In this document: in pieces, positions 7,761-37,437 of the stretch
How the letters are laid out: the number at the start of each line of letters is the position of its first letter
Numbering within the stretch: the stretch's first letter is position 1
NCBI GenBank assembly: GCA_963793115.1
Contig: CAWBYV010000008.1
Location: forward strand, 228,250-292,249
Origin: an uncultured delta proteobacterium
GTDB lineage: Bacteria; Desulfobacterota; Binatia; Binatales; Binataceae
Length of the DNA: 64,000 nucleotides
Direction: 5' to 3'
Notes under the pieces: generated by a model
What the model was told of the DNA's origin: nothing
Seen by the model: the letters and a program-made list of their open reading frames with translations, nothing else
The model's database searches: none
Program-made: the position numbers and the translations under genes

Positions 7761-9008
7761 ATGAGAACGCTCGCGTTCATAATGGCGGGCGGGCAGGGCG
7801 TCCGTCTACATCCGCTGACCAGGGAACGCGCCAAGCCGGCAGTCCCGTTCGGCGGCAAGTACCGGATCATCGACTTCGTTCTATCCAACCTGGTGAACTC
7901 GGGGATTTACTCCATCTACGTGCTCGTGCAGTGGCGATCGCAGTCGCTGATCGAACATCTGAAGGACGGATGGCAGTTCGGTGGGATGCTGCCGGGGCAT
8001 TTCATAACCCCGGTGCCCGCGCAGATGCGGATGGGCGAGAGCTGGTATCAGGGCACTGCCGACGCGATCTTCCAGAACCTGAATCTGTTGGAGGATAGCA
8101 AACCCGATATCGTGGCGGTATTCAGCGCCGACCATATCTATCGGATGGACGTGCAGCAGATGCTCGATTTCCATCTCGAGCGCAAGGCCGCGGTCACACT
8201 CGCCGCGTTGCCGGTAGATATCGAGCAGAGCAGCGAGTTCGGCGTGATTGACGTCAACTCAGGGCTCAGGATCGTCGGCTTCGAGGAGAAGCCGCAAAGT
8301 CCGCACTCGATGCCGGGGGCGCCGGGCAAGTGTCTGGCCTCGATGGGAAACTACCTCTTCGACCCGCAGGTGCTGAGGGCGGCGCTGATCGAGGACGCGC
8401 AGGAGGTCAACAGCCAGCACGACTTCGGCCACAATCTCATTCCGGGCCTCATCGACCGCGTTCCGGTCTATGCGTACAACTTCATGACCAACCACATCCG
8501 CGGCGACCTGGAGGAGAACCTCAGCTACTGGCGCAACGTCGGTACGCTGGAGTCGTACTTCGACGCCAACATGGATCTGCGCGACGCGCGGCCCCATCTC
8601 AACCTGTACAATCCGAATTGGCCGCTGCGGACCGCTTACTACGGTCAGCCGCCCGCCAAGTTCGTGTTTGCCGAAGACGGGCGGCGCGGACTGGCGCTGC
8701 ATTCGACGATCTCCGAAGGATGCATCATCTCGGGCGGCGCGGTGCGCAATTCGATCCTGGGACGCTCGGTCTTCGTGCATTCGTACAGCGAGGTCAACGA
8801 TTCGGTAATCATGGATTACGTGGAGATCGGGCGGCACGCGCGCGTGCGCCGGGCGATCATCGACAAGAACGTCTGTATCCCGGAGGGCGATGAGATCGGC
8901 TACGACCTCGAACGCGACCGCAAGCGCTTTTTCGTTACCGCCTCGGGCCTGGTGGTGATTCCCAAGGCTCCCAAGCGCGACCGCCTCGCCGACATCGCGC
9001 TGCCGTAG
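7761..9008 (+). CDS. glgC: glucose-1-phosphate adenylyltransferase
   Basis: 415 aa. N-terminus LAFIMAGGQGVRLHPLTRERAKPAVPFGGKYRIIDFVLSN and a C-terminal left-handed beta-helix region, typical of ADP-glucose pyrophosphorylase. Confidence 0.9.
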   Translation: MRTLAFIMAGGQGVRLHPLTRERAKPAVPFGGKYRIIDFVLSNLVNSGIYSIYVLVQWRSQSLIEHLKDGWQFGGMLPGHFITPVPAQMRMGESWYQGTADAIFQNLNLLEDSKPDIVAVFSADHIYRMDVQQMLDFHLERKAAVTLAALPVDIEQSSEFGVIDVNSGLRIVGFEEKPQSPHSMPGAPGKCLASMGNYLFDPQVLRAALIEDAQEVNSQHDFGHNLIPGLIDRVPVYAYNFMTNHIRGDLEENLSYWRNVGTLESYFDANMDLRDARPHLNLYNPNWPLRTAYYGQPPAKFVFAEDGRRGLALHSTISEGCIISGGAVRNSILGRSVFVHSYSEVNDSVIMDYVEIGRHARVRRAIIDKNVCIPEGDEIGYDLERDRKRFFVTASGLVVIPKAPKRDRLADIALP

Positions 9009-9027: not shown

Positions 9028-10128
9028 GTGATCGGATTGAAAGCAGATCAACATTTGGCCGCAGGACCCTCACCCGCACGCGCTCCCATCGGCGATATCC
9101 GGGAAAGCTCGGACCCCGCCGGCGATCGAGCTGGCAAGCATCAGTCGGCCGCGCGCAGGCCGTTAGTGCTCGGTCCGGGCAGCCGCGCGCTGTATTACCT
9201 GATGGTCGCGATGTTGCACGCGCTCAGCCTCATTCCCGACTTCATCCTCTATCCGATCGGAGTCGCGGGCGGATTCATCGCCTATCTGCTCGATCGGCGG
9301 CACGTGAAGATCGGGCTCAAGAACCTTTCATTCGCGTTTCCCGACCGCACCCTCGACGCTCGAAAGCGAATCCTGCGCGCCTCGTATATCAATCTCGGCC
9401 GCGCCGGAGCCGAATACATCCGGTTGGGCGGCTTTTTCTACCGCAGACTTAGGAGGCGCGTGGACTACGACCGCCTCGAATACTTTCACGAGCTGCAAGC
9501 CCGCTATCCGAATCGCGGCATTCTCGTCCTGAGCGCCCATTTCGGGAACTTTGAGCTGCTGGCGGCGGCGCACGCGATGCACGGTTACCCGATCAGCCTC
9601 GTGCATCATACCCAGAGCTTTCTCGCGGGCGACGCGCTCACGACGTTCGTGCGCCATCGCGCCGGCGTTGACACCCTCCGCAAGCATTCGGCCGCGCGTG
9701 CCGTGCTCCGCGTGCTCAGAGACGGCGGCCTGGTCGGGATTCCGTTCGATCAGAACGCCAAGCGTAGCGAGGCGCTGTTCCTGCCGTTCTTCGGCGAGCC
9801 CGCCGCGACCACCAGCGGTCTGGCGCGAATCGCGATGATCTCGGGCGCGGCGGTTGTGTCGGCGTTCATCGTTCGCCAGCCCGATAATCGGAGCCATCGA
9901 ATCATGATCCACGATGAAATTCCCCTGCAACGGAGCGGCGAACCGGAGCGGGATATCGAGGAGAACACCCGCCGGTTCCTCAACGCGGTCGAGGACACCG
10001 TGCGCCGCTATCCCGAGCAGTTCCTGTGGACGCACCGGCGCTACAAGACCCGCCCGCGCGGGATGGAGCCGGTCTACGACGACACTCCGCGCCATCGCCA
10101 TCGCGACGCCGCGAAATCGCGCACCTGA
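9028..10128 (+). CDS. lipid A biosynthesis lauroyl/myristoyl acyltransferase family protein (LpxL/HtrB-like)
   Basis: N-terminal TM helix, then the LPLAT core (ILVLSAHFGNFELL, GIPFDQNAKRSEALFLPFFGEPAATTSGLARIA, YPEQFLWTHRRYKTRP). The true start is probably the internal ATG near 9202. Confidence 0.75.
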   Translation: MIGLKADQHLAAGPSPARAPIGDIRESSDPAGDRAGKHQSAARRPLVLGPGSRALYYLMVAMLHALSLIPDFILYPIGVAGGFIAYLLDRRHVKIGLKNLSFAFPDRTLDARKRILRASYINLGRAGAEYIRLGGFFYRRLRRRVDYDRLEYFHELQARYPNRGILVLSAHFGNFELLAAAHAMHGYPISLVHHTQSFLAGDALTTFVRHRAGVDTLRKHSAARAVLRVLRDGGLVGIPFDQNAKRSEALFLPFFGEPAATTSGLARIAMISGAAVVSAFIVRQPDNRSHRIMIHDEIPLQRSGEPERDIEENTRRFLNAVEDTVRRYPEQFLWTHRRYKTRPRGMEPVYDDTPRHRHRDAAKSRT

Positions 10129-10148: not shown

Positions 10149-11823
10149 TCACCGTCGCGCGCGCTTCAACAAGACCATGCCACCCGTGTCGTCGAGCTGG
10201 GTTGGGCCGCTGGTGAGGACCAGGCTGAATCCACGGCTCTGCGCCGCGTCCATGCGATCGAAGGCGTCGCTTGCGCAAAGCAGGTAGTCGGGCTGATCGC
10301 GATCGCCGAGCCGGACGATCGGGATACTCCGGCCGCTGTAGAAGGCCACGTCGTAATTCAGGCTCTCAAGGTAGGCGACCGGGCCGTCGCCAACGATCCG
10401 CATCGCGTCGGCGGTGAACGCCCTAAGCCCGATAGTGTTGGCGATCGCGGGCTGTACGAACAGATTAGCCATCAGCGTGATACACGCGACGCCGGCAGCG
10501 ATCAAGGCGACAGTCGCCTCTATCGCGGGCCGTGCAACCATCAGAAAGACGCCCAGACCCGTGACTGCAACCGCCAGGACGATCGCCACAATCCAGCGTG
10601 CGCCGATAGCGTGCCCGAGTGCCGGCATGAAGCCGGCGGCGGTGATATCGAAGCGTGCGAGCAGGCCGGCGCACGCGGCCGGATTCATTTTGAGCATCAG
10701 CGGCGCCGCGATAGCCGCGCATCCAGCCACAGCCAACGTCAAGCCCGCGAGCGCAGCGAAGGCCGCCACCCACCGGGGACGGCCTTGATCGGCTGAAAAC
10801 GCATCGCCCAGCGATACGGCGACGATCGAGGTCAGCGCGGGATAAAGCGCCAACAGGTAAACTCCGCGCTTGCTTTGCGCCAGATTGTAGAAAGTCAGTA
10901 CCGTCAGGGACCAGACGGCAAGATAGCGCAGGCGCGGGCCGAGCGGGCGCGGCGCGCGCGCGAGCCGGATCGCCGGCGCCGGGATCAACAGCGACCACGG
11001 CATGAAGCCCGCGAGCAGGGCCGCTTCGACATAGTAGAACGGATGCGCGTGGCCCGCGCTGAACTGCGGACCGCCGGCGAAGCGGATGAGGTTTTCGGCG
11101 ACGATCTGCTTGCGAAAGAAACCGGGACCCCCGGCGTACCCGGCGGCGAGGTACCATCCGCCGCCGAGGATTGCGACGATCGCCGCGCCGGGCAGGAGAT
11201 GGAGCTTGCCGATCAGGTCCCATCTCTGTTCGATCCCGATCCAGATCAAAGCGACCGCCGCGGGCAGCACGGCACCCACCGGCCCTTTGGTAAGCACCGC
11301 AGCGGCGACGGCCAGATACATCATGAGCCAGCGGCGCGACAATCCCTCGGCGATCGAAATGAATTCGAAGAACGCGACTGTCATGAAGAACGTCAGCGTC
11401 GAGTTCGACGCGCGCGCCGCCGCCCGCTTGCAGATACTGCACCGAAGTGCCGAGCATCAGCGCCGACAGCATCCCGCTGCGATCGTCAAACAGCCGGCGT
11501 ACGTACAGGTAGCAGGCGATCATCGCAGCGATGGCGAGGGTGGCGGAGGGCAGCCGCACCGTCCATTCGTTGACGCGCCCGGCCGCGATCGAGAGCAGCG
11601 CGCCCAGCCAGTGCATCATCAGCGGCTTGGAGGGAATCTCGACCCCGGCGCGCAGCGGCAGGATCCATCCACCGCCATGCACGATATCGAAGATCGTCAC
11701 CGCCTCGCGCGGTTCACCTTTGGTATAGAGCGGATAGCCGCCGAGATTGACGAGATACAGCGCCGCGCCGGCGCCGAGCAGGATAGGGATCGCGAACCGG
11801 GGAGCGGCGGCGCGGGCGAACAA
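10149..11823 (-). CDS. GT39/ArnT-like dolichyl-phosphate-dependent glycosyltransferase (frame break near 11400-11440)
   Basis: ORFs 10465..11823 (N-terminal part YTKGEPREAVTIFDIVHGGGW.., LGTS motif) and 10149..11384 (TLTFFMTVAFF.. plus many TM helices) are the two halves of one polytopic ArnT/PMT-family protein. They are split within a GCGGGCGGCGGCGCGCGCG run. Confidence 0.65.
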
Positions 11824-12119: not shown

Positions 12120-12348
12120 GACGAATTCCTCGCTGTGGAGTTCGGAAAAATCGGGCCCGCTTCGGTTCGTGCCCAGCGTCACTAAAGACCAGCCCTGACC
12201 CCTTAGTCAACCTGTTTGAACGAATCGGTGCTGAGTTCACGCCAGTGTCTGAATTGCGACCGCAAGTGATTTAAGTAAAATGCGTTCGGACAACACCCGG
12301 CGCAAGGCGGCGGTTGCTCGCGGCGGCGATATCGCGTATGTGGCGGGG

Positions 12349-14334: not shown

Positions 14335-15359
14335 TCAGCAGTGCCAACAGGTCAGGCTCAGCGGGACGTGAATCGCTTCGGCGGCTTCGAGCGCCGGCGT
14401 CGTCTTGCGATGGGGGTCGGCGCCGGCGACCAGCGCGACCACCCCTCCCGCGGCGACCACGATTCCGATCAGCTCGCGCCGGCTGGCGTGTTCGCCGAGG
14501 AACATCACGGCGAAGACTATCGACAGCAGCGGGATACCGGGCACCACCAGCGCCGTCGTCCAGGCCAGCGAAAGACGGCTGATCGCGGCATACCACGACG
14601 AGGTGCCCAGAAAGTACACGACCACTCCGGTCGAAATCACCACCGCCAGCGCGCTCCAATCAGCCAACTGAACGACCGCGCCCGGATGAATTGCGATCAG
14701 GATTCCGCACAGCACGAAGGCGGCATAGATATAGCGCGCGCCCGCCAGGCAGATCGGACTCAGCGGCGGCATCACCTTGAGCGACAGCACGTGCGAGCCC
14801 TGCCAGAACAGCGGCGTGAGGGCGACCAGGAGCGCCGCGTAGGCCGGTGAGAAACCGCCGCCCGCCAGCACCACGACGATCCCGGCGATAATCGTCGCGG
14901 TCGCGGCGAGCTGGCGAAGCGAGGGGCGCTCGCCGACTATCAGCGTCGCGAGCAGCAGCGAGTAGATCGGTTCGCTCTGCAACAGCAGCACGCCCGCGAC
15001 CGCGTCGATTCGCCGCAGGCCGTAGATCAGCGCCAGGCTGGTCAGGACCGTGCCGGCGATCGAGATCGAAAACAGACGGGGCAGGTATTCGGGGTCGATC
15101 AGGAGGCCGAGCTCGCCGCGGCGATAGAGCGTGAATGCCAGACAGAGCGCGGCGATGGAAACCGCGGCCGCGCAAAAGAGCAGAGGTTCCAGGTTGAGCG
15201 CACCGTAACGCGTGATCACCGGCAACACCGCGCCCGTGATCACGTTGAAGACGCAAAGCGCGAGCCCGATCGCGAAGCTTCGCCGGAGCGAAACGGCGTC
15301 GTCGAGGGTGTCGGCGAAGCGATCGGCGGAATGGCCTGCGGCCCTGGACGGTTGGGACT
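14335..15359 (-). CDS. DMT-superfamily (EamA-like) transporter
   Basis: C-terminal roughly 340 aa of ORF 14335..15963 are ten hydrophobic helices with EamA-like spacing. The upstream 200 aa of that ORF overlap uppP out of frame and are rejected. Likely GTG start overlapping the uppP stop. Confidence 0.55.
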
Positions 15360-17505: not shown

Positions 17506-18915
17506 ATGCGCGGCGAACCGCTAAACACTTACTCTCGCATGGCCGAAATCGACACCTCGAAACCGCGGCATGTAGTTGCAGTGGTGGGCGGAGCAACCGC
17601 CGGCGCCGAAATCGCGTACGTCCTGGCGAGTCGCGGGGCGATCGTTGCGGTCTTCGAGCAGCACAAACGCCCATACGGAAAAATCGAGGACGGACTGCCG
17701 CGATGGCACGTCAAGCAACGCAAGGATGAATACGAAGAAATAAACCGGCGCCTGTCGCATCCGAACGTCGCCTACGTGCCGGAGACCCGGATGGGCCGCG
17801 ATATCCAGTTCGACGAGCTTCGCCAACAGTGGCAGTTCAGCGCGATTGTGCTCGCGCATGGCGCCTGGCGCGATCGGCCCTTCCCGGTCGAAGGCGCCGG
17901 CCAGTTCGTCGATCGCGGCCTGATTTATCAGAACGCGCTCATCTACTGGTTCAATCACTATCCCGAACGCGCCTACCGCGGACCTCGCTACGAATTGCCG
18001 GATGGCGCGACGGTCGTGGGCGGAGGCCTGGCTTCGATCGACGTGGTCAAGGTGCTGCAAATCGAGACCACGCTCAAGGCGCTCCGCACGCGCGGGATCG
18101 AGGAAGACATGCTGCGGCTCGAGCGCGAGGGAATCGAGCCGGCGCTCGCCGCCCGCCGGCTCACGTGGGGCGGCCTGGGCGTGAAGCCCTGCAAGCTCTT
18201 CTACCGGCGCAGAGTGCTCGATATGCCGCTCTCGGACATTCCTGCCGATGCTAATCCCAAGCGCGCCGAGGCGCTTCGGCAGGCACGCGCCAAAATCCTG
18301 GACAAGGCGATGCGCAAGTACATGTTCGAGTTTCAGGAGCTGCGCGTGCCGACCGGGCTGGTAGTCGAAGGCTCCGGCCCGGAAGCCACGATGCGCGGCG
18401 TGATCTTTAGCCGCACGGAGGTTGTGGACGGGCAGGCCCGTACGCTCCTCGATACGGCAGAGACGGTCCGCGCAGTTCTGACGGTAAGCTCAATCGGCAG
18501 CACCCCGGAGCCGCTCCCCGGCATCCCGCAGCGCGGCGACGTTTACATCTACGCCGATCGCAAGATCGGTCTGCTGATCGGCGGCCCGACGCCCGTGTTC
18601 GCGGCCGGCAACGTCCTCACCGGCAAGGGCAATATCAGGGATTCGCTCGAAAGCGGGACCAAAATCGGCGTGCAGTTGGCGGAGGCGTATCTGGGGCTGA
18701 GCGGCGAACCGATGGGGCCGCTTGCCGAGGGCGCGCGCCGCGACGCGCACCAGCAAGGCGAGACCATCCAGGGCGTCCTGTCGCAGCGTGAGCCGCTGGC
18801 GCCGGACCATGTCGCTGCCGTGATCGCGAAAGTGCGCGAACGCCAGCGTGCGGTCGGCTTCGAGGGGGACTATCGCGCCTGGATCGCGCGCGTCACGCCG
18901 CCCGACTTGCAGTAG
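17506..18915 (+). CDS. FAD/NAD(P)-binding oxidoreductase (pyridine nucleotide-disulfide oxidoreductase-like)
   Basis: AAGGA RBS before the ATG at 17506. Two Rossmann dinucleotide motifs (VVAVVGGATAGAEIA and GATVVGGGLASIDVV). Confidence 0.65.
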   Translation: MRGEPLNTYSRMAEIDTSKPRHVVAVVGGATAGAEIAYVLASRGAIVAVFEQHKRPYGKIEDGLPRWHVKQRKDEYEEINRRLSHPNVAYVPETRMGRDIQFDELRQQWQFSAIVLAHGAWRDRPFPVEGAGQFVDRGLIYQNALIYWFNHYPERAYRGPRYELPDGATVVGGGLASIDVVKVLQIETTLKALRTRGIEEDMLRLEREGIEPALAARRLTWGGLGVKPCKLFYRRRVLDMPLSDIPADANPKRAEALRQARAKILDKAMRKYMFEFQELRVPTGLVVEGSGPEATMRGVIFSRTEVVDGQARTLLDTAETVRAVLTVSSIGSTPEPLPGIPQRGDVYIYADRKIGLLIGGPTPVFAAGNVLTGKGNIRDSLESGTKIGVQLAEAYLGLSGEPMGPLAEGARRDAHQQGETIQGVLSQREPLAPDHVAAVIAKVRERQRAVGFEGDYRAWIARVTPPDLQ

Positions 18916-29999: not shown

Positions 30000-32900
30000 T
30001 TAATGGAAGTCGTGCGAGCGGGGGATCGCGGCGTCGAGGCGGAGCTCGGCGAAGCGCTGGCCGCGCACGTTGATCACGCCGTCGGCCTTTTGCAGCACGC
30101 CTTCGACCATCAGGATTTGCGCGCGATGGAGCAGCGCGCGGTGCCGCTGGAATACATCCGGGATGACTATAGCATTGGCTATTCCGGTTTCATCCTCGAG
30201 CGTGACAAAAAGGAAGCCCTTCGCGGTGCCCGGCCGCTGTCGCACGATCACGACGCCCGCGACTCTGACGGTCGAACCGTGAGCGGCGCTGGCCAATTCC
30301 GCCGCGCTCAGCACGCCGCGCGCCTTGAGCCTCGATCTGAGATGGGCCATCAGATGGGGGCCGGTCGTGACGCCGGTTGAAGCATAGTCGGCAACGGTTT
30401 CCTCGACCGGCGTCATCGTGGGAAGCGGCGCGGTTCCGGGAGCCGGCTCCGCACCGGCGAGCAGGCTTTGCGGGTCGCGCTCGACGGCGGCGACCTGCCA
30501 TAGAGCGTCGCGGCGCTCCAGAGTGAATGCGCTGAACGCGCCGGCGTGAGCGAGCGCGTCGATTTCGCGCCGGTTGGGACCGACGCGCGCGCTGAAGTCG
30601 GCGATCGATCTAAAGGGCCGGATGGCGCGTTCGCGCTCGATCGTGTGCGCGGCTTCGTCGCGGAGTCCGGCGATGTATCTGAGGCCAAGGCGGAGCGCTC
30701 TCAGTCGGGGGCTTGTCTCCGCACTCTCCCTTCTGCACCTCTCCCTGACCAGTCGCCACCGGCGCGGGGAGAGGTCGCCTCTTGATTTGCTACTGCAAGT
30801 CGCGAGGCGGGTGAGGGTAAACGTGCGAGAAGACCATCGCCAGAAGAGTAGGAAGGCAATACCCTCACCCGGCGCGCAGACGCGCCGGCCTCTCCCGCGC
30901 CGGTGGCGACTGGTCAGGGAGAGGCGAAGAGCAGAGCGTCGGCTGATCCTCGAGCGTGCATTTCCAATTGGAGCGCGTGACATCGATCGGAAGCACCGTG
31001 ACGCCGTGGCGTTGGACGTCTTTGACCAGAGTCGAGGGATGGTAGAAGCCGAGCGGATAACAATTGAGCATCGCGGCAAAGAACGCCGCCGGATGATGGC
31101 ACTTCAGATACGCGGAGGCATAGGCGATAAGCGCGAAGCTGGCGGCGTGCGATTCCGGAAAGCCGTAAAGCGCGAATGAAGTGATCGATCGCACGATCTC
31201 GTCGGCGCGGGCACCGGTGATCCGGTTGCGCGCCATTCCGTCGCGCAGCCGCAGCTCGATCTTTTCCATCCGCGCCGCCGAGCGCTTGAACCCCATCGCG
31301 CGGCGCAGCTCCTCGGCTTCGCCGCCGCTGAAACCCGCCACGGTCATCGCCATCCTGAGCAACTGTTCCTGAAAGAGCGGCACGCCGAGCGTGCGGCGCA
31401 AAATTGGTTCGAGCGAAGGATGAGCATAGCGGACCGGCGCGCGGCCGTTGCGGCGATCGAGATACGGATGGACCATTTTTCCTACTATCGGTCCGGGCCG
31501 GATTATCGCAACCTCGACCACCAGGTCGTAAAAGTTACGCGGCTTCATCCGCGGCAGCGTCGCCATCTGGGCGCGGCTTTCGACCTGAAAGACGCCGACC
31601 GTGTCGGCCCGCCGCAGCATCGCGTAGACCTCTGGATCGTCCGGCGGGAGATGGGCGAGGTCGACCGCGACGCCTTCATGTTGGCGGACGAGCGGAAGAG
31701 CCTCCTCCAGTACGGCGAGCATCCCCAGCCCGAGCAGGTCGATCTTGATGATCCCCAGGTCTGCGCAGTCTTCCTTGTCCCACTGGACGACCACCCGCCC
31801 CGGCATCGAGGCCGGCTCCAGCGGCACGATCTCGTCGAGCGGCCCCGCGCCGATCACCATCCCGCCGCTGTGCTGGCCGAGATGGCGCGGGAGACCCTGG
31901 AGCGGCGCACCAGTCCGATCAGCAGCCGGATTCGCGGGGTGCGGGGATCGATGCCGCCATTGTGGAGCAGCGCCGCGATATCATCGTGATCGTCGCGAAA
32001 CTCGTAGACGCGGTTGAGCTTCGCGAGGCGATCGACCTGAGCGAGCGAGAAGCCCAGCGCCTTGCCGGCCTCGCGCACGGCGCTGCGCGTGCGATAGGTA
32101 ATCACGTTGGCGGTCATCGCGGCGCCGCGCTCGCCGTAACGGCGATAGACGTACTGAATCACCTTCTCGCGCTGATCGCCGCTGGGCAGGTCGATATCGA
32201 TATCGGGCCACTCGCCGCGTTCCTCGGACAAAAAGCGCTCGAACAGGAGTTCCATCCTGACCGCGTCGACCGCGGTGATTCCGAGCGCGTAGCAGACCGC
32301 ACTGTTGGCCGCCGAGCCGCGGCCCTGCGCCATGATCCGGTTTTCGCGGCAAAACTGCACAACGTCCCATACGATCAAAAAGTAGCCGGCGAGCTTGAGC
32401 CGCTCGATTACGCCGAGCTCGTGCTCGAGCTGCTGGCGCACGCGCGGCCCGGGCTCCGCGCCCCATCGTTCGCGCGCGCCCGCCCGGGTCAGTGCGCGCA
32501 GGTAGCTGTCGGGCGTTTCGCCGGGCGGGATCGGATAGTCGGGAAACCGGTAGCCCAGGTCCTTGAGCGTGAACTCACATCGCGCGGCGATTTCGCGGGT
32601 CGCAGCGATCGCGCCCGGCAGATCGCGGAACGACGCTGCGACTTCGGCCGGCGGTTTGAGATAGCGCTGGTTGTTGACCCACAGCGCCCGCCCGGCTTCG
32701 TCCAGCGTGGTCTTGAGCCGGATACAGGTGAGCACGTCGAGCAATTCGCGCTCGGTTCCGGTGTGACAGACGTCGTTGGTCGCGACGATCGGAACTCGCA
32801 TCGCGGCGGCGAGCGCGAGCAGCTTGCGATTGAGCCGCTCCTGGCCGGGATCGAGATGGCGCTGGAGATCGATAAAGAGATTTCCGGCGCCGAGGCTCGC

Positions 32901-33389
32901 GCCGAGCCGGTCGCATAGTTGACGCGGATTTTCGCCCCGCAAGAGCATCCGCGAGACCGGGCTGAAAACGCCGCCGGCGATACAGATCAGGCCGGCGCCG
33001 AATCGCTCGAGGTCGTCGAGGCTGATGCGGCCCTCGCCCTTGGGAGCGCGCAGCTTCGAGCCGGTGATCATCCGGCAGAGATTTTTGTAACGTGCACGAT
33101 CGGGAACCAGGATGTAGAGCCGCGACGGCGCGGCATCGCGCTCGCGCCCGGATTGCCCGACGTTATCTTCCAGAGTCAGCTCGGCGCCGACTATCGCCTT
33201 GATCCCGGCGCGGACCGCGGCGTGATAAAAGCGGGGCGCTCCGTAAAGTCCGTCGCGATCGCCCAGCGCGAGCGCGGGATAGCCGAGCGCGGCGGCGCGA
33301 TCGACCAGGTCCTCGGGGGTTGCGGCGCCTTCGAGAAAGCTGAACGCGCTGCGCGCGCGCAGCTCGATATAGTCAGAGTGAGTAGTCAT
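30000..33389 (-). CDS. dnaE2: error-prone DNA polymerase DnaE2 (ImuC), interrupted by a roughly 190-bp palindromic repeat insertion near 30736-30926
   Basis: Three ORFs (31854..33389 PHP/pol III alpha N-terminal, 30865..31860 fingers/thumb, 30000..31079 OB-fold C-terminus) are colinear with DnaE2. Frames change at 31860 and inside the repeat element. Confidence 0.8.
30736..30926. repeat. composite REP/MITE-like element: two inverted units (head TACCCTCACCCG.. tail ..TGGTCAGGGAGAGG) forming a roughly 190-bp hairpin, inside dnaE2
   Basis: Left arm 30738-30774 (CCTCTCCCTGACCAGTCGCCACCGGCGCGGGGAGAGG) is the reverse complement of right arm 30889-30924. Inner GGGTGAGGGT / ACCCTCACCC at 30810-30819 and 30861-30870. 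Confidence 0.6.
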
Positions 33390-33408
33390 TACTATTACAA
33401 CTCAGCGA

Positions 33409-33572
33409 CAGACGACCCTCACCGGCGAGCCATTTGCTTACGCAAATGCTCGCCGACCTCTCCCTGGTCAGGGAGAGGTGTAGATTTGGCGGCGCTTTTC
33501 TTCGCCTCTCCCTGACCAGGGAGAGGCCGGCGCGGACGAGCGGAAGCTCGCTATACGCCGGGTGAGGGTAGC
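33409..33572. repeat. composite REP-like element (two units tail-to-tail) in the imuB-dnaE2 intergenic region
   Basis: GACCCTCACCGGCGAGC..CCTCTCCCTGGTCAGGGAGAGGTG (33409-33480) and the inverted unit CCTCTCCCTGACCAGGGAGAGG..CCGGGTGAGGGTA (33504-33572). Confidence 0.6.
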
Positions 33573-33641
33573 CTGAACGCACCGCTCCATCGTGTGCTCC
33601 TCCAACATTAGTCACGGCATTCCATGCGGGCGGTTGAATAG

Positions 33642-35357
33642 CTAGTCATAGAGTCCATCCACGAACCATTGATGAGAGCGCAGGTCGCAGAACATCCGGT
33701 AGACAGCGCCGTCGGCGAGCGCGACATCGTAGTAATCGCGGGCGAGGGGAGTGGCTATTGTTCTGGAAAAAGACCTCTCCCCGAACCCCTCGCCCGCAGG
33801 GGAGGGGCAGGAGATGGTTGCGCCATTTTCTCTATGGTTCCCCCTTTCCAGGGAGAGGGTGGGGGTGAGGGTTTCTTCGCGCCACCATTCGCCCTCACGC
33901 CGCCACGGCCCCGAGATCGAGACCACGCGCGCGCATACGGTTCGTCCCCGCACAAATTCCGGCACGCCGCCGCGGGTGCACATCACCTCGACTTCCTCGG
34001 CGGGGCGAATCGCGCGGATCACGAGCCGCGCGATATTAGCGGCTACGTCTTTTTCAGGTGGAAGAGATACCCTCACCCGGTGAGCGCAGCGCTCACCGGC
34101 CTCTCCCCGCGCCGGGGGCGACTGGTCAGGGAGAGGTGAAGAAGGAGGAACGGGAGAAGGCGGAGGGGGATCGAACGGGACGACTTCGATCGCTTCGGGG
34201 CGCCAGGAATTGACGGGCTTGAGCGTGCCGACGCGACCGGGGCCACAGATGGCGGCCAGGCGCGCGATCGTGGTCTGCAAGCGATCTGGAGCAGGCGAGG
34301 GCGGCAGGAACAGGTCGGTCTGCGCCGGGCGCGGGACTCGCGGCTCGGCGGTGATTCGGATCGTTCCGATCGCGGCGGACGGCGGCGCCGCTTCGAGACT
34401 CAGGATTATCAGCGCGAGTAGCGAGCGGACCTCGTTAGTGGGCGCCGCGATCGCAACCCGCCGATCATAAACGCCGTGCCCGTCAAGCCCGAGCGAGAGC
34501 ATCAGGTCGCCGGCGACCAGGCCGCGAAGTTCGAGCCGCGCGGCCAGCCGCTCGACCATCGGGCGCATCACGAAGCCGAGCGGCTCGAGCATTTCGATTC
34601 CGTAATCCAGCTCGACCGTCTCGGCGAACAGCTCGGCGCGCGGGCAGGGGATGAACGGCGCATTATTTTCGCCGCGCGCGAGGCGGGCCAGATCCACGCC
34701 GCGTGCGCCGAGCCGGCTGCCGAGCGCGCAGGGTTCTATCCGGGCAAGCTCGCCAAGCCGGCGGATACCCCATCGCGCGAGCGTAAACACCAACTCGGCG
34801 CCGTCGGGATCGTCCGCGCCGGTGGCGAGCACGTCGAGCGGCATCCAGTCGAGGAACTCGCGCTCCTTACAAGCGGGGATCGCTCTTTGCCCGCCGCATC
34901 GCGCCGCGAGCCAGGCGGCCTCCTTGCTCGACGCGATTCCAATCGCGGCGTCGAATCCGACTTTCGCCGCGCGCCGCGCGAGTTCCGCCGCCATCTGCTC
35001 TTCCGTGCCATGGATTCCGGCGAGTCCTGCCAAATCGAGATACGCACATCCCGGCCCGCCGTCCTCGACTATCGGTGAGAATGACTCGGCTGCGTCCAGT
35101 ATCGCATCATGGGCCGAGCGTTCGGCGGCCGGCGACGGCGCAACGGGAATCAGCCCGGATACGAGCGCGCGCGCCTGCGCGACCGTCATCCCGGCCCGCA
35201 CGCCGGAGGTCCTCGCGCACGCGGAGACCGCGGTAAGCTCGGCGTGTCCTTCGCGGCCGGCGCTCAGCGCGACGGGCCGATCGCGCAGCTCGGGATTGGC
35301 GCGGACGATCGCGGCGACGGGAAAATCGCCAATCAGGATACATGCAATACGAGCCAT
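33642..35357 (-). CDS. imuB: ImuB (Y-family polymerase-like) protein of the imuA-imuB-dnaE2 mutagenesis cassette, carrying in-frame repeat-derived insertions
   Basis: 571-aa intact ORF. N-terminal UmuC/DinB-like fold (MARIACILIGDFPVAAI..). Conserved C-terminal motif DYYDVALADGAVYRMFCDLRSHQWFVDGLYD. Two REP-like units (33771-33875, 34068-34137) are translated in frame as SSPLPDQSPPARGEAGERC.. and ..EGEWWREETLTPTLSLERG... Confidence 0.75.
   Translation of the reverse strand: MARIACILIGDFPVAAIVRANPELRDRPVALSAGREGHAELTAVSACARTSGVRAGMTVAQARALVSGLIPVAPSPAAERSAHDAILDAAESFSPIVEDGGPGCAYLDLAGLAGIHGTEEQMAAELARRAAKVGFDAAIGIASSKEAAWLAARCGGQRAIPACKEREFLDWMPLDVLATGADDPDGAELVFTLARWGIRRLGELARIEPCALGSRLGARGVDLARLARGENNAPFIPCPRAELFAETVELDYGIEMLEPLGFVMRPMVERLAARLELRGLVAGDLMLSLGLDGHGVYDRRVAIAAPTNEVRSLLALIILSLEAAPPSAAIGTIRITAEPRVPRPAQTDLFLPPSPAPDRLQTTIARLAAICGPGRVGTLKPVNSWRPEAIEVVPFDPPPPSPVPPSSPLPDQSPPARGEAGERCAHRVRVSLPPEKDVAANIARLVIRAIRPAEEVEVMCTRGGVPEFVRGRTVCARVVSISGPWRREGEWWREETLTPTLSLERGNHRENGATISCPSPAGEGFGERSFSRTIATPLARDYYDVALADGAVYRMFCDLRSHQWFVDGLYD
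33771..33875. repeat. degenerate REP-like unit inside imuB coding sequence
   Basis: GACCTCTCCCCGAACCCCTCGCCCGCAGGGGAGGGG and TCCAGGGAGAGGGTGGGGGTGAGGGT, divergent copies of the tail and head motifs. Confidence 0.4.
34068..34137. repeat. REP-like unit inside imuB coding sequence
   Basis: TACCCTCACCCGGTGAGCGCAGCGCTCACCGGCCTCTCCCCGCGCCGGGGGCGACTGGTCAGGGAGAGGTG, full head-palindrome-tail architecture. Confidence 0.55.
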
Positions 35358-35372
35358 CGGAGTCGCATTGGT

Positions 35373-36240
35373 TCAGGCGCACCTAACCCCTAACCCCTTC
35401 CCGACGCGGGAAGGGGAACCTTGCTCCATTTCTCCACCGCTCCCGTCCACCAGCGCGTGCCAGCTCGCGCGCGCGCCGACGCCGCCCAGCTTGTTGCGCG
35501 CGACCAGCGCCTCGATCGCGAGACCGTCGAACAGCGAGGGGGCTCCGATCGCGCGACGGCTGAAGCAGGCCTGGTTGCGGCTGAGCATGAGACTTTGCGC
35601 GGCGAACGTTCCGCACATCCGGAAGGTCGCGAGCACGATCACGGCGGCGCCGGTCCGCTCCGCGATCCGGGCGATTCGAAGCGCCGCGCTGTGCGGAATC
35701 GCGCGAGTGGAGTTGCCGAAGTCGATAACGACCAGGCCGAAGCCGCCCGCCTCCAGGACCAGTTCAGCGGCACGAACGGTCGCCACCGGCGCGGTCGCCC
35801 CCGGCGTCGCCATCGGCGCGGCGGCGGCATTCCATTCAAATCGAGGCGAGCGATCGACGCGCGGCGATGACCACAACACGCGCGTGAGGTCGGCGCCTGG
35901 CCGCCGCGACAGTCACAGGATCGAAACTGCCCGCTGAATCGATCCACGCCGCAGCTTCACCACCGCGGGTCGCTGACGCGACGAAGCAGGCGGCGAGCGA
36001 GGTCTTGCCGGCGCCGACCGGACCGACGATTTCGCTGATTCTGCCGCGTACGATTCCCGCGCCCAGCAGACGGTCGATCAGAGTGAGCCCCGAGCTTAGG
36101 CGGCGGGCTTTGCGGGTAAGTTCGCGGCCGGTAAAAACTCCTGTGATTTTAAGAGCTTGTAATGTTTTGACAGATCCGGCAAGAGGCGCCGAATTGGCTT
36201 GAGAAAGCCCGCTCAAAGTGCTGGAAAGCGACGCAGCCAC
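35373..36240 (-). CDS. imuA: ImuA (RecA/SulA-like) protein (frame break near 35860)
   Basis: ORF 35836..36240 has the Walker A-like loop (EIVGPVGAGKTSLAACFVASA). Continuation in ORF 35373..35879 (..GGFGLVVIDFG..). Position directly upstream of imuB. Confidence 0.6.
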
Positions 36241-36325
36241 GAAGGCTACTTTCGCTTTTTATTCGTCTTATGTCAACGCTAAAGAGTCAAGAACTTCATG
36301 GCCGACAGGCAGGCTGCGTGCAGAG

Positions 36326-36382
36326 TACCCTCACCCGGCGAGCGCGACGCTCGCCGACCTCTCCCTGGTCAGGGAGAGGTGT
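36326..36382. repeat. REP-like unit in the imuA upstream region
   Basis: TACCCTCACCCGGCGAGCGCGACGCTCGCCGACCTCTCCCTGGTCAGGGAGAGGTG (head, 15-nt palindrome, hairpin tail). Confidence 0.55.
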
Positions 36383-36415
36383 TAAAGAGCACATCCCAGT
36401 TGTACGTGCGGGTGT

Positions 36416-37437
36416 TCAGATTTCGCGGTCGATCTGTTCGTCGATCAGGATGCGCAGGCTGTCGCGATAGATCGAGGGCTTGAGCTGCGCGAGGATGTTG
36501 CGCGCCACTTCGACCTGCTCCGCGGCCATCGCGCGGGCCCGGGCGAGCAGGCGCGGACTGCGCAGGATCTGCATCGCGCGTGCGAAGTCGGCGCCGTCGA
36601 GCGCGCGGCCGTTGCCGAACAGGCCGCGCAACTCGGGGTCGGACTCGACCGCGAGCACTACCGGTAGCGACGGAATTCCTTCGCGCAGATCGGAACCGAC
36701 CGGCTTGCCGGTTTTCGCTTCGGGGCCGAGGACATCGAGCAGGTCGTCGATCATCTGAAACGCGAGCCCGATCGCGCTGCCAAGATCCGCCATCGCAGAC
36801 GACAATCGAGCGGGCGCTCCGGCGAGCTTGGCAGCGACTTTGCCACCGGCCGCGAACAGCGATCCGGTCTTGCGCCCGATCACTGCCATATAGTCGGTGA
36901 GGCTCACGGCGGGGTTGCGGCGCAGCCGCCCCTCCATCACTTCGCCCTCGGTCAACTGGATACAGGCCTGCGCGGCGGTGCGCACCAGATGCTCCTCGAA
37001 GCGGCCGCACAACTCGAAGGCGCGGCAGAACAGATAATCGCCGGCGACCATCGTGGGTCCCGCACCATATCGCATGAAGGCCGAAGGCTTGCCGCGGCGC
37101 AGCGTGCCGCCGTCGATGATATCGTCGTGAAGCAGCGTGGCCGAATGAATCAGCTCGAGCGCGATCGCGGCGTCAACCGCGTCAACGACCGTGCGTTCAT
37201 TGCCGCCGCATCCGCGATGGACGAGCAGAATGAACAGCGGGCGCAGGCGCTTGCCGCCGCCATCGATAAGATAGTGGCAGATTTCGGAGATCAGCCGCTC
37301 GCGCGAGTCGAGCAGGCGCGCGAGCTTTTCTTCGACCGCCAGCAGGTCGGCCTCGACGATACGGGCGGCTCGGCGATACGAGCAAGCGGCTCGATCATCT
37401 CCGGGGCGGCCAGCACTACGGATTTTGCCTTCTCCAT
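36416..37437 (-). CDS. polyprenyl diphosphate synthase (trans-IPPS, IspB/GGPPS-like) (frame break near 37380)
   Basis: ATG at 37437 (MEKAKSVVLAAPEMIEPLA). First DDxxD (LLHDDIIDGG) and second DDxxD (FQMIDDLLDV) motifs. Starts 3 nt after the cofE stop. Confidence 0.75.

Follow-up and report, generated by a model that had tools for sequence, protein, structure and literature searches.

The ImuA-ImuB-DnaE2 mutagenesis locus of this Binatia genome carries a group of short palindromic repeats. What are these repeats, and why do they lie together in and around these genes? The window referred to below is the whole stretch of DNA that was analysed (64 kb).

Repeat units of the imuA-imuB-dnaE2 locus

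Searching for the head and tail proposed in the first-pass annotation, we observed six units at 30.7-36.4 kb and zero elsewhere in the 64 kb. The head TACCCTCACCCGG gave 6 matches at up to 2 mismatches, compared with 0.88 expected from shuffles of the 64-kb window, and five of the six were within 30807-36338. The sixth, at 9065, was examined and is not an element. For the tail TGGTCAGGGAGAGG there were 9 matches against 0.25 expected, all within 30738-36379, and for CCTCTCCC-N0-30-GGGAGAGG there were 6 against 0.00, all inside the repeat region. The remaining CCCTCACC or GGGAGAGG sites of the window were isolated words. The annotated confinement of the motif to about 6 kb of the window was borne out. 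At least seven units of one architecture had been annotated. Six of these stand, while 33771-33875 is a short-loop inverted doublet of a different architecture; an eighth, short-loop element at 35384-35420 had been overlooked. The genes and elements are as follows, with the strand of a unit taken as that on which the head precedes the tail.

30000..33389, minus strand: dnaE2, in three frame pieces (33389-31902, 31902-30910 and 30677-30003)
30729..30821, minus strand: unit A', with a 21-nt tail loop and a 32-nt imperfect central palindrome, in the dnaE2 finger/HHH linker
30858..30931, plus strand: unit A, inside the dnaE2 linker
33409..33485, plus strand: unit B, in the imuB-dnaE2 spacer, left half of a tail-to-tail inverted doublet
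33495..33573, minus strand: unit B', right half of the tail-to-tail inverted doublet with unit B
33642..35357, minus strand: imuB, a single open frame of 571 aa
33771..33875, minus strand: element E, in imuB, two inverted short-loop BoxC-type units that form a decayed doublet
34066..34145, plus strand: unit C, with a 21-nt tail loop, inside imuB linker 1
35373..36240, minus strand: imuA, two frame pieces, 1-nt insertion near 35898
35384..35420, minus strand: short-loop triplex motif, in the last codons of imuA
36324..36386, plus strand: unit D, a short form, upstream of the conserved block preceding imuA

Read on the opposite strand, the six canonical units have the order CCTCTCCC-loop-GGGAGAGG-spacer-GGGTGAGGG. 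Units B, B' and D have a loop 1 of 6 nt, units A, A' and C one of 21 nt, and the head of unit B has a 1-nt deletion. The spacer (loop 2) is a perfect, GC-rich hairpin of 17-35 nt; the central palindrome, previously given as 12-15 nt, measured 13-31 nt. A 3-nt second loop was seen only in the 35384-35420 element (TTA) and in the halves of element E (CCA, TTC). The former reads CCCCTTCCC-GCGTC-GGGAAGGGG-TTA-GGGGTTAGG on the minus strand, and the two halves of element E read CCCTCACCC-CCA-CCCTCTCCC-TGGAAA-GGGGGAACC and CCCCTCCCC-TGCG-GGCGAGGGG-TTC-GGGGAGAGG. The units reach slightly past the motifs used in the search, with TA in front of CCCTCACCCGG at one end and YGNAGA(A) behind GGGAGAGG at the other. 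Both inverted pairs that had been annotated were found again: at 33.4-33.6 kb the delimited units lie tail-to-tail, 9 nt apart (14 nt between 49-nt arms), and at 30.7-30.9 kb they lie head-to-head, 36 nt apart.

The units belong to a known class of triplex-type repeats

BoxC/PIT/TMECO elements, known from E. coli and other bacteria, are potential intrastrand triplex repeats (Holder et al. 2015, PMC4666352, citing Hoyne et al. 2000), and the published pattern CCCTCNCCC-N3-6-GGGNGAGGG-N3-GGGNGAGGG forms a triplex in vitro (PMC4666352). The three conserved blocks of our units, CCCTCTCCC, GGGAGAGGG and GGGTGAGGG, have the same sequence and the same order as in those repeats, and the third block likewise mirrors the purine arm. 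The description of the family as previously unrecognised is therefore lost at the level of the class, which had already been described. Both sets are also dispersed and mostly intergenic, include palindromic doublets and show local instability between strains, and no associated transposase has been found for either, in our case among the unit-bearing loci. They differ in loop 2, which is 3 nt in BoxC/PIT/TMECO and a perfect hairpin here, in the 21-nt loop 1 of three of our units, and in the host, which is a member of the Binatia. Five of the eight elements here are intragenic; in MG1655, by contrast, every TMECO copy is intergenic. With its loop range of 1-6 nt, the ITxF search (PMC4666352) would miss hairpin-spaced units.

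We detected the hairpin-spaced variant in at least 120 stretches from many phyla, ranging from Alphaproteobacteria to Chloroflexota and Binatia. It may represent an undescribed general architecture of the repeat class. As the published loop limits exclude this variant, the class is much larger than catalogued. To our knowledge, BoxC/PIT/triplex repeats were first noticed about 30 years ago, and there is still no agreement on what they do or how they spread.

Evidence for a proposed triplex fold

Watson-Crick folding of the DNA gave two abutting hairpins and a free 3' G-block, with z-scores of -2.8 to -6.6. The stem CCTCTCCC...GGGAGAGG, together with a covarying ninth pair, was present in 6/6 canonical units. 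This ninth pair was A-T in 31 and G-C in 24 of 64 copies, and in a set of 135 it was C-G in 65, A-T in 47 and G-C in 10. When GGGTGAGGG was aligned antiparallel to GGGAGAGG(N), 8 allowed triplets were obtained (G·G, A·A and T·A permitted). Families with asymmetric arms were informative here: GGGAGAAGG is accompanied by mirrored GGATGAGGG in 19/28 copies compared with 6 direct, and GGGAAGGGG by mirrored GGGGTTAGG in 14/27 compared with 3 direct. In 75/135 spacers the triloop was TNC (GNA when read on the G strand). Judged from the asymmetric families, the third block mirrors the purine arm in the way that a purine-motif triplex demands. On comparative grounds, the mirror covariation favours a triple helix of single-stranded DNA over alternative Watson-Crick hairpins.

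On the G-rich strand, CCTCTCCC-loop-GGGAGAGG forms hairpin 1, and the second perfect hairpin, of variable sequence, directly abuts it. In the fold that we propose, the free GGGTGAGGG(TA) of single-stranded DNA can pack against hairpin 1 as a purine third strand in antiparallel orientation. Such folding might occur in vivo during replication, repair or transcription, although for the E. coli motif a triplex was undetected in vivo by DMS footprinting (PMC4666352).

The strong hairpins might instead suggest structured RNA elements (terminators, mRNA stabilisers or a small RNA) acting after transcription, and for comparable CCCTCTCCC hairpins of Enterobacter sp. 638 a terminator role has been proposed (PMC2869309). 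We consider this very improbable. The Rfam comparison suggested by the first-pass annotation gave zero matches at the gathering score, and hits at E values up to 10 were at chance level. The units lie in either orientation relative to transcription, and also inside ORFs that remain intact. Their third block shows mirror symmetry and not complementarity, RNA does not form purine-motif triplexes (PMC4666352), and the GNA triloop is preferred on the G strand regardless of gene orientation.

Dispersal and the possible means of movement

The exact signature of the Binatia subfamily was found in 49 metagenome loci, of which 46 were away from imu operons, and 49/52 subfamily matches in metagenome loci were intergenic. 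The annotation as a dispersed repeat family rather than a local duplication thus holds. All copies of the window do lie within 6 kb, as segmental duplication or chance might produce. However, shuffles expect 0-0.9 matches, and the finding of 64 distinct copies with unrelated flanks on other contigs refutes this explanation, to which we give next to no credence.

Tail-to-tail inverted doublets, with gaps of 12-130 nt, occur at about half of the 49 subfamily loci; inverted doublets, which had been annotated, are in fact the commonest layout of the subfamily. Since the ends of the copies are sharp, some end-specific activity probably moves them. The term MITE-like had to be dropped: the ends TA-CCCTCACCC and GGGAGAGG-YGNAGA do not match in inverted orientation and so provide no terminal inverted repeats, and a comparison of filled with empty sites yielded no target-site duplications.

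Could these doublets be the mobile unit of a REPIN/RAYT system (Bertels and Rainey 2011, PMC3116915), with a REP-associated tyrosine (HUH Y1) transposase that acts on folded single-stranded DNA and copies them? The likeness includes units of 50-90 nt, tens of dispersed copies per genome, and inverted doublets that are frequent and able to form a long hairpin. Sharp ends with zero target duplications are the expectation for HUH Y1 transposition. TA is almost invariant at one end (60/64 copies), and 29/64 copies have CTA, that is, GTAG on the G strand. However, wherever this GTAG occurs, the 9-nt G block separates it from the hairpin foot, and it does not directly adjoin the hairpin as the 5' GTAG of REPs does. 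When 179 unit-bearing loci (1.5 Mb, no complete genomes among them) were searched with E. coli RayT by tblastn, the best E value was 0.14, and no RAYT gene was found in them. Different phyla share identical versions of the three blocks, in contrast to the lineage-specific sequences of REPs, and a published study of E. coli TMECO found no link to transposases (PMC4666352). We therefore consider RAYT mobilisation, as put forward in the first-pass annotation, to be unlikely.

The same sites in relatives and the state of the genes

Orthologous loci were compared as the first-pass annotation had suggested, and we observed different elements, or none, at the same sites. Unit A' belongs to a 158-nt segment that is missing from relative L001, and unit A is orthologous to the sole in-frame dnaE2-linker unit of L001 and L122. 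The B/B' doublet is present in L001 and L122 and is a diverged remnant in L125; the L124 sequence ends inside it. At the site of element E, in ImuB linker 2, L122 and L124 have no insert, and L001 has a canonical unit of opposite orientation. The 35384-35420 element is common to the window, L122, L124 and L125, and L128 has a near-identical element at this imuA site. In place of unit D, L001 has a 1.2-kb FAD-monooxygenase gene. With given sites filled, empty or otherwise filled among relatives, the alignments indicate that close relatives have gained, lost and remodelled copies.

Of the eight elements of the window, five are inside imuA, imuB or dnaE2, in linkers. The first-pass annotation was silent on this coding location and on the translation of units in frame. 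Unit C is translated as ImuB residues about 404-430 (linker 1), where the peptide SPLPDQ corresponds to CCTCTCCCTGACCAG, and element E as residues about 494-529 (linker 2). The insert peptides map to ImuB segments with pLDDT below 50. As expected of intragenic palindromic repeats, these are in-frame insertions in a conserved protein, lie in a linker and are missing from some orthologues. ImuA, ImuB and DnaE2 are intact in L001 and L122 despite the units, whose effect on the proteins is a linker length polymorphism.

In this window the dnaE2 frame runs into a TGA inside GGGTGAGGG of unit A. Frame breaks were limited to imuA and dnaE2; six neighbouring genes each aligned in one frame, and the seventh, PIN, gave no hit in this check. 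From the reading frames, the second dnaE2-linker unit and two 1-nt frame breaks probably inactivated dnaE2 and imuA here. The frame breaks could also be assembly errors. Relative L001 carries split genes of its own.

Concentration of the units in imu operons

Across Binatia lineages, we counted 32 Py/Pu hairpins in 50 kb of cassette and 2 in 166 kb of flank, an approximately 53-fold difference for which the baseline is 10-kb flanks and not whole genomes. With one locus per lineage the figure was 18/19 (P = 2e-11), and with the window left out it was 10/11 (P = 3e-5). The annotated clustering on the imu operon is real and is seen again in other Binatia lineages; the unusual feature is this approximately 50-fold pile-up, partly in frame, inside imuA, imuB and dnaE2.

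We think it probable that the units are a dispersed, structure-defined, non-coding repeat of the BoxC/PIT kind, in its hairpin-spaced variant, which piles up in the imu operon through tolerance and weak selection. In-frame copies in the disordered linkers and spacers would be harmless, and selection on the operon would be weak because it is presumably seldom used. However, the 50-fold excess is not obviously explained in this way, since the flanks have many intergenic spacers without units, and no mobilising enzyme was identified among the unit-bearing loci.

The units might instead be selected parts of the imu operon, with structured DNA or mRNA hairpins tuning or toggling mutasome expression, for example as indel-prone contingency switches. 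Enrichment does recur in lineages with ImuB only 53-60% identical, where different unit families are found at the same linkers, and in one split imu operon the inserted genes are free of units. E. coli TMECO loci are hyper-variable (PMC4666352), and in this window a unit puts the TGA into the dnaE2 frame. Against this, the same sites in relatives are occupied by unrelated repeat families, close relatives with intact genes have empty sites, both orientations are found, lineage L129 has zero units, and E. coli PIT elements showed neither promoter nor terminator activity (PMC4666352). Selection for such a role seems quite improbable to us.

It is an equally long shot that the triplex-type and other hairpin repeats of Binatia are specifically drawn to, or retained in, the ImuA-ImuB-DnaE2 genes. 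Conceivably, new mutasome proteins act preferentially on the DNA adjoining their own genes, with error-prone synthesis and template switching in cis, or structure-prone inserts act as indel-prone on-off switches of induced mutagenesis. If true, either route would tie an obstacle-bypassing polymerase to obstacle-forming DNA inside its own genes.

Intragenic REPs in DNA-repair genes, with DnaE2 explicitly listed, have been reported (Di Nocera et al. 2013, PMC3733652). Like these and the Rickettsia palindromic elements, our units are short palindromic repeats, often dimers, lying in frame in protein linkers, and, as with the REPs, replication and repair genes are conspicuously hit. In contrast, the reported REPs are GTAG- or CGTC-tagged and unrelated in sequence to our units, and the report neither listed ImuA and ImuB as targets nor gave a quantified imu enrichment or a comparison of orthologous empty sites (PMC3733652). 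With units concentrated about 50-fold in the three genes, in frame and at matching linkers of independent lineages, the earlier anecdotal remark on REPs in repair genes becomes measurable. The imu operon is a concrete system in which to ask whether repeat insertion is targeted (e.g. to SOS single-stranded DNA) or merely tolerated. The inserts also shape the lengths and frames of ImuA, ImuB and DnaE2 in metagenome bins, and annotation and pseudogene calls are affected.

Eight repeat elements in the imu region

We searched the 64-kb window with the conserved parts of the repeat. The head TACCCTCACCCGG, allowing up to 2 mismatches, gave 6 matches against 0.88 expected, the tail TGGTCAGGGAGAGG gave 9 against 0.25, and the hairpin CCTCTCCC-N0-30-GGGAGAGG gave 6 against 0.00. 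Save for one chance head-like word at 9065, all of these lay within 30.7-36.4 kb. The repeat cluster proposed by the first-pass annotation is thus real, although its inventory needed correction: of the seven units said to share one architecture six do so, the seventh (33771-33875) is a different, short-loop inverted doublet, and an eighth element at 35384-35420 had been missed. Local duplication or chance, as the origin of the cluster, is refuted and is given practically no weight.

Genes and repeat elements of the imu region (window coordinates)
30000-33389, minus strand: dnaE2, with PHP, pol3-alpha, finger, HHH and OB domains
30729-30821, minus strand: unit A', common architecture, in the finger/HHH linker of dnaE2
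30858-30931, plus strand: unit A, common architecture, in the finger/HHH linker of dnaE2
33409-33485, plus strand: unit B, common architecture
33495-33573, minus strand: unit B', common architecture
33642-35357, minus strand: imuB, IMS domain, a single 571-aa frame
33771-33875: element E, a short-loop inverted doublet whose arms are partly decayed, in an ImuB linker
34066-34145, plus strand: unit C, common architecture, in an ImuB linker
35373-36240, minus strand: imuA, RecA-like
35384-35420: short-loop element, in the final codons of imuA
36324-36386, plus strand: unit D, common architecture

The genes in this region all lie on the minus strand; the GC skew of the window was too weak for a replication-strand assignment. 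ImuB homologues assign the source organism to Candidatus Binatia/Binataceae. Five of the eight elements fall within coding sequence (A' and A in dnaE2, C and E in imuB, and the short-loop element in imuA), and the peptide SPLPDQ in ImuB is the translation of CCTCTCCCTGACCAG. In the AlphaFold2 model of ImuB, pLDDT was <50 at residues 404-451 and 491-535, and both insert peptides fall in these segments, flanked by confidently folded parts.

The units are a variant of the BoxC/PIT class

On the G strand, which is opposite to the head-to-tail reading, the order of a unit is CCTCTCCC-loop-GGGAGAGG-(perfect palindrome)-GGGTGAGGG-TA. The E. coli repeat BoxC, which was renamed PIT and later TMECO, follows the pattern CCCTCNCCC-N3-6-GGGNGAGGG-N3-GGGNGAGGG (Holder et al. 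2015, PMC4666352). The units described here have the identical three blocks in the identical order, but loop 2, which is 3 nt long in TMECO, is a perfect hairpin of 17-35 nt. The imu operon also contains classic short-loop versions, in the window as well as in relatives. The family had been called previously unrecognised; it is instead a variant of this described class. For TMECO, that study reports 3610 copies across 262 proteobacterial genomes and, in vitro, the formation of a class II (purine-motif) intrastrand triplex; every MG1655 copy is intergenic, the motif lacks any transposase association, and the loci it marks show higher between-strain variation (PMC4666352). Earlier work also describes this hairpin, for Enterobacter sp. 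638 (PMC2869309) and for E. coli, where it was put forward as a putative G-quadruplex/hairpin switch (PMC5100583).

The hairpin-spaced form lies outside the net of ITxF, the search definition used for TMECO, because ITxF loops are 1-6 nt, and within the literature searched, a limited test, we found no prior description of it. Rfam gave zero matches at gathering score; matches at E up to 10 (eukaryotic miRNA models, ylbH) were at chance level and reflect the long hairpins. The hairpin-spaced architecture and its breadth are new points, as is the mirror-covariation evidence presented below.

Evidence for a triplex-type structure

Folding with DNA parameters placed two hairpins directly against each other and left the 3' G block free, with z-scores of -2.8 to -6.6. 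As the hairpins abut, the free G block begins at the foot of hairpin 1, which is the required start of an antiparallel third strand. Read from the sequence, GGGTGAGGG against GGGAGAGG(N) makes G·G, A·A and T·A triplets only. The ninth pair, formed by the base before CCTCTCCC and the base after GGGAGAGG, covaries, being A-T in 31 and G-C in 24 copies of the Binatia subfamily (n=64), and C-G in 65, A-T in 47 and G-C in 10 across phyla (n=135, among the matches listed).

We also compared the third block with the purine arm, restricting the test to families with a purine arm that lacks mirror symmetry; every hairpin was counted on both strands, with a ceiling of about 50%. The third block tracked the mirror image of the arm and not its direct sequence: GGGAGAAGG paired with GGATGAGGG (mirror 19/28 vs direct 6), GGGAAGGGG with GGGGTTAGG (mirror 14/27 vs direct 3), and GGGGGAGGG with GGGTGGGGG. 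This result speaks against a hairpin switch, in which the third block would instead form Watson-Crick pairs, since such a hairpin would need the direct order.

A TNC triloop was found in 75/135 spacers among the matches listed, and corresponds on the G strand to GNA closed by C:G, which we take to be a DNA mini-hairpin of the d(GCGAAGC) type. An RNA tetraloop of the UNCG type could be ruled out for the spacer loops, as the palindromes have 3-nt TNC loops. RNA cannot form purine-motif triplexes (PMC4666352), and the structure therefore points to single-stranded DNA; that the units are an RNA element appears very improbable. For the E. coli motif, a triplex was not detected in vivo by footprinting (PMC4666352).

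Dispersal and mobility

The Binatia subfamily, defined by a TA-head and a TGGTCA tail, was found in 49 metagenome stretches, only 3 of which are imu operons. Its matches were intergenic in 49/52 cases, and the three intragenic ones lay in DnaE2 (twice) and in a cyclase/AAA regulator (once). In this last case (locus L153, 1296-1415), the sole non-imu intragenic one among the 52 copies, a tail-to-tail doublet is translated in frame (PLPGQGEAIRTPLPDQGEG...) within an adenylate-cyclase/AAA/TPR-type regulator of >1000 aa.

Mobilisation of the units as REPINs by a RAYT transposase, as the first-pass annotation had proposed, would agree with the tail-to-tail inverted doublets at about half of the 49 loci and with the sharp ends of the similarity, at TA/CCCTCACCC and GGGAGAGG/YGNAGA(A) in 64 distinct copies. 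However, no RayT homologue was found in 1.5 Mb of unit-bearing loci, GTAG is partial and out of place, and the conserved blocks are identical across phyla. We saw no target-site duplications at filled vs empty sites and no terminal inverted repeats on the units. RAYT mobilisation is unlikely, though we leave it an appreciable chance. What holds of the earlier interpretation is a dispersed, REPIN-like family with unusual clustering; the class itself, however, was already described, and intragenic repeats in dnaE2 have precedent.

For the cross-phylum scan, we used one genome per species and the pattern CCCTCACCCGG-N8-38-CCTCTCCC-N0-30-GGGAGAGG, and obtained at least 120 stretches. By record title these belong to Alpha- and Gammaproteobacteria, Myxococcota, Planctomycetota, Verrucomicrobiota, Acidobacteriota, Chloroflexota, Gemmatimonadota, Bacteroidota, Thermodesulfobacteriota and Binatia. 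This spread marks the hairpin-spaced form as a general variant. A general link between units and imu genes outside Binatia was not borne out, only 1/120 loci being near a DnaE-like gene among the matches listed. Only 4/135 units outside Binatia were intragenic among the matches listed (DsbD, a UvrD-like helicase, a HisA-like protein and TrpE). In Novipirellula rosea (L061, 1764-2204), three near-identical hairpin-spaced units stand in tandem with a 189-nt period, a layout not seen in Binatia.

Clustering on imu operons of Binatia

Eight imu loci of Binatia, taken with 10-kb flanks, were scanned for perfect polypyrimidine/polypurine hairpins of 8 bp or longer. Operon sequence, 50 kb in all, contained 32 and flanking sequence, 166 kb in all, contained 2 (ratio about 53). 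The clustering recurs across Binatia lineages. With one locus per lineage, 18/19 hairpins were in the operon (P = 2e-11), and with the discovery window left out, 10/11 (P = 3e-5). The enrichment persists in L126 and L128, where ImuB is 53-60% identical and other unit families occupy the same linkers; L129 was the sole lineage without any such hairpin. In L128 (9032-19452), an LPG-synthase gene and a VirJ-like gene split imuA-imuB from dnaE2, and identical hairpin-spaced units are found in imuA and dnaE2, while the two inserted genes have none.

Intragenic GTAG/CGTC REPs are conspicuous in replication and repair genes, DnaE2 explicitly included, and mutator effects of such repeats have been a matter of speculation (Di Nocera et al. 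2013, PMC3733652). What is new is that, in Binatia, all three mutasome genes are colonised in frame and recurrently, and that this is quantified. Taken together, we consider it probable, though well short of settled, that the units are a dispersed repeat of the BoxC/PIT class, structured as single-stranded DNA, which accumulated where tolerated in a rarely used operon. Spacers would tolerate copies, as would disordered linkers if the copy is in frame, and the imu operon would be rarely used. Tolerance alone does not fully explain the size of the enrichment. A selected regulatory or switch role of the units in the operon seems to us distinctly improbable.

Turnover in relatives

L001 is about 91.5% identical to the window in nucleotide sequence; the other syntenic relatives compared were L122/L123, L124 and L125. 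L122 and L124 have nothing at ImuB linker 2, whereas L001 has a canonical unit there and the window has element E, which is oppositely oriented. At linker 1 of ImuB they all share one unit, with differing palindromes and loop inserts. An internal imuA site is filled in L122 and L124 only. In the dnaE2 linker, L001 has a single unit and the window has two; L122 combines one unit with another type, and L125 carries a different repeat family. Palindromes that are divergent yet perfect at orthologous sites would fit repeated hairpin-templated correction. Proline-codon polypyrimidine tracts as landing pads were dropped, as they fit ImuB linker 1 only.

Two other short GC-rich repeat families, of the GTCATTCCGAGCGAAGCGAGGAATC and CCTGAGCGAAGTCGAAGGG types, occupy these imu linkers and spacers in relatives (L001 ~9900-9960; L122 ~8560-8660 and ~11280-11310; L125 ~11250-11450 and ~14400-14600; L128 ~18650-18700), sometimes nested in loops of triplex-type units, and are absent from the window. 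In L001 (7823-9043) and L127 (6750-7952), imuA and the polyprenyl synthase gene are separated by a FAD-binding monooxygenase gene (~400 aa). The window (~36280-36420), L122 and L124 have repeat units there instead, a rearrangement beside triplex-type units.

State of the operon

At ~31904 (31902-31904), dnaE2 of the window misses one G, and at ~35898 imuA has one extra A, each vs three relatives. Compared with L001, the dnaE2 linker (30700-30950) has an additional 154 nt, a length not divisible by 3, and the frame running into unit A stops at a TGA within GGGTGAGGG. With L122 proteins as tblastn queries, imuA aligned in two separate frames and dnaE2 as three pieces, while CofG, CofH, CofD, F420 ligase, polyprenyl synthase and a TPP enzyme were in one frame each. 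A frameshift in polyprenyl synthase, which would have suggested assembly errors, was thus ruled out. As the breaks affect only imuA and dnaE2 and spare the six neighbours, the operon in the source genome looks to be decaying, and genuine decay is more likely than random assembly error. Assembly errors at hairpins and G runs keep some weight, because L001 also has split genes of its own.

Directly upstream of imuA, a conserved block of ~35 nt, GTTTGACATAAGACGAATAAAAAGCGAAAGTAGCC (window 36236-36275, minus strand), is shared with L001, L122, L124 and L125. It holds TTGACA and GAAT-N7-GAAA, a candidate promoter with a LexA-type operator; a simple promoter scan returned nothing. In L125, a classic short-loop motif, CCCCTCTCCCCC-ACA-GGGGGAGAGGG-TCA-GGGAGAGGGG, lies at ~12237-12275 in the 5' part of dnaE2. 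The gene is called there from the pol3-alpha domain onward only (788 aa), so it may be disrupted too.
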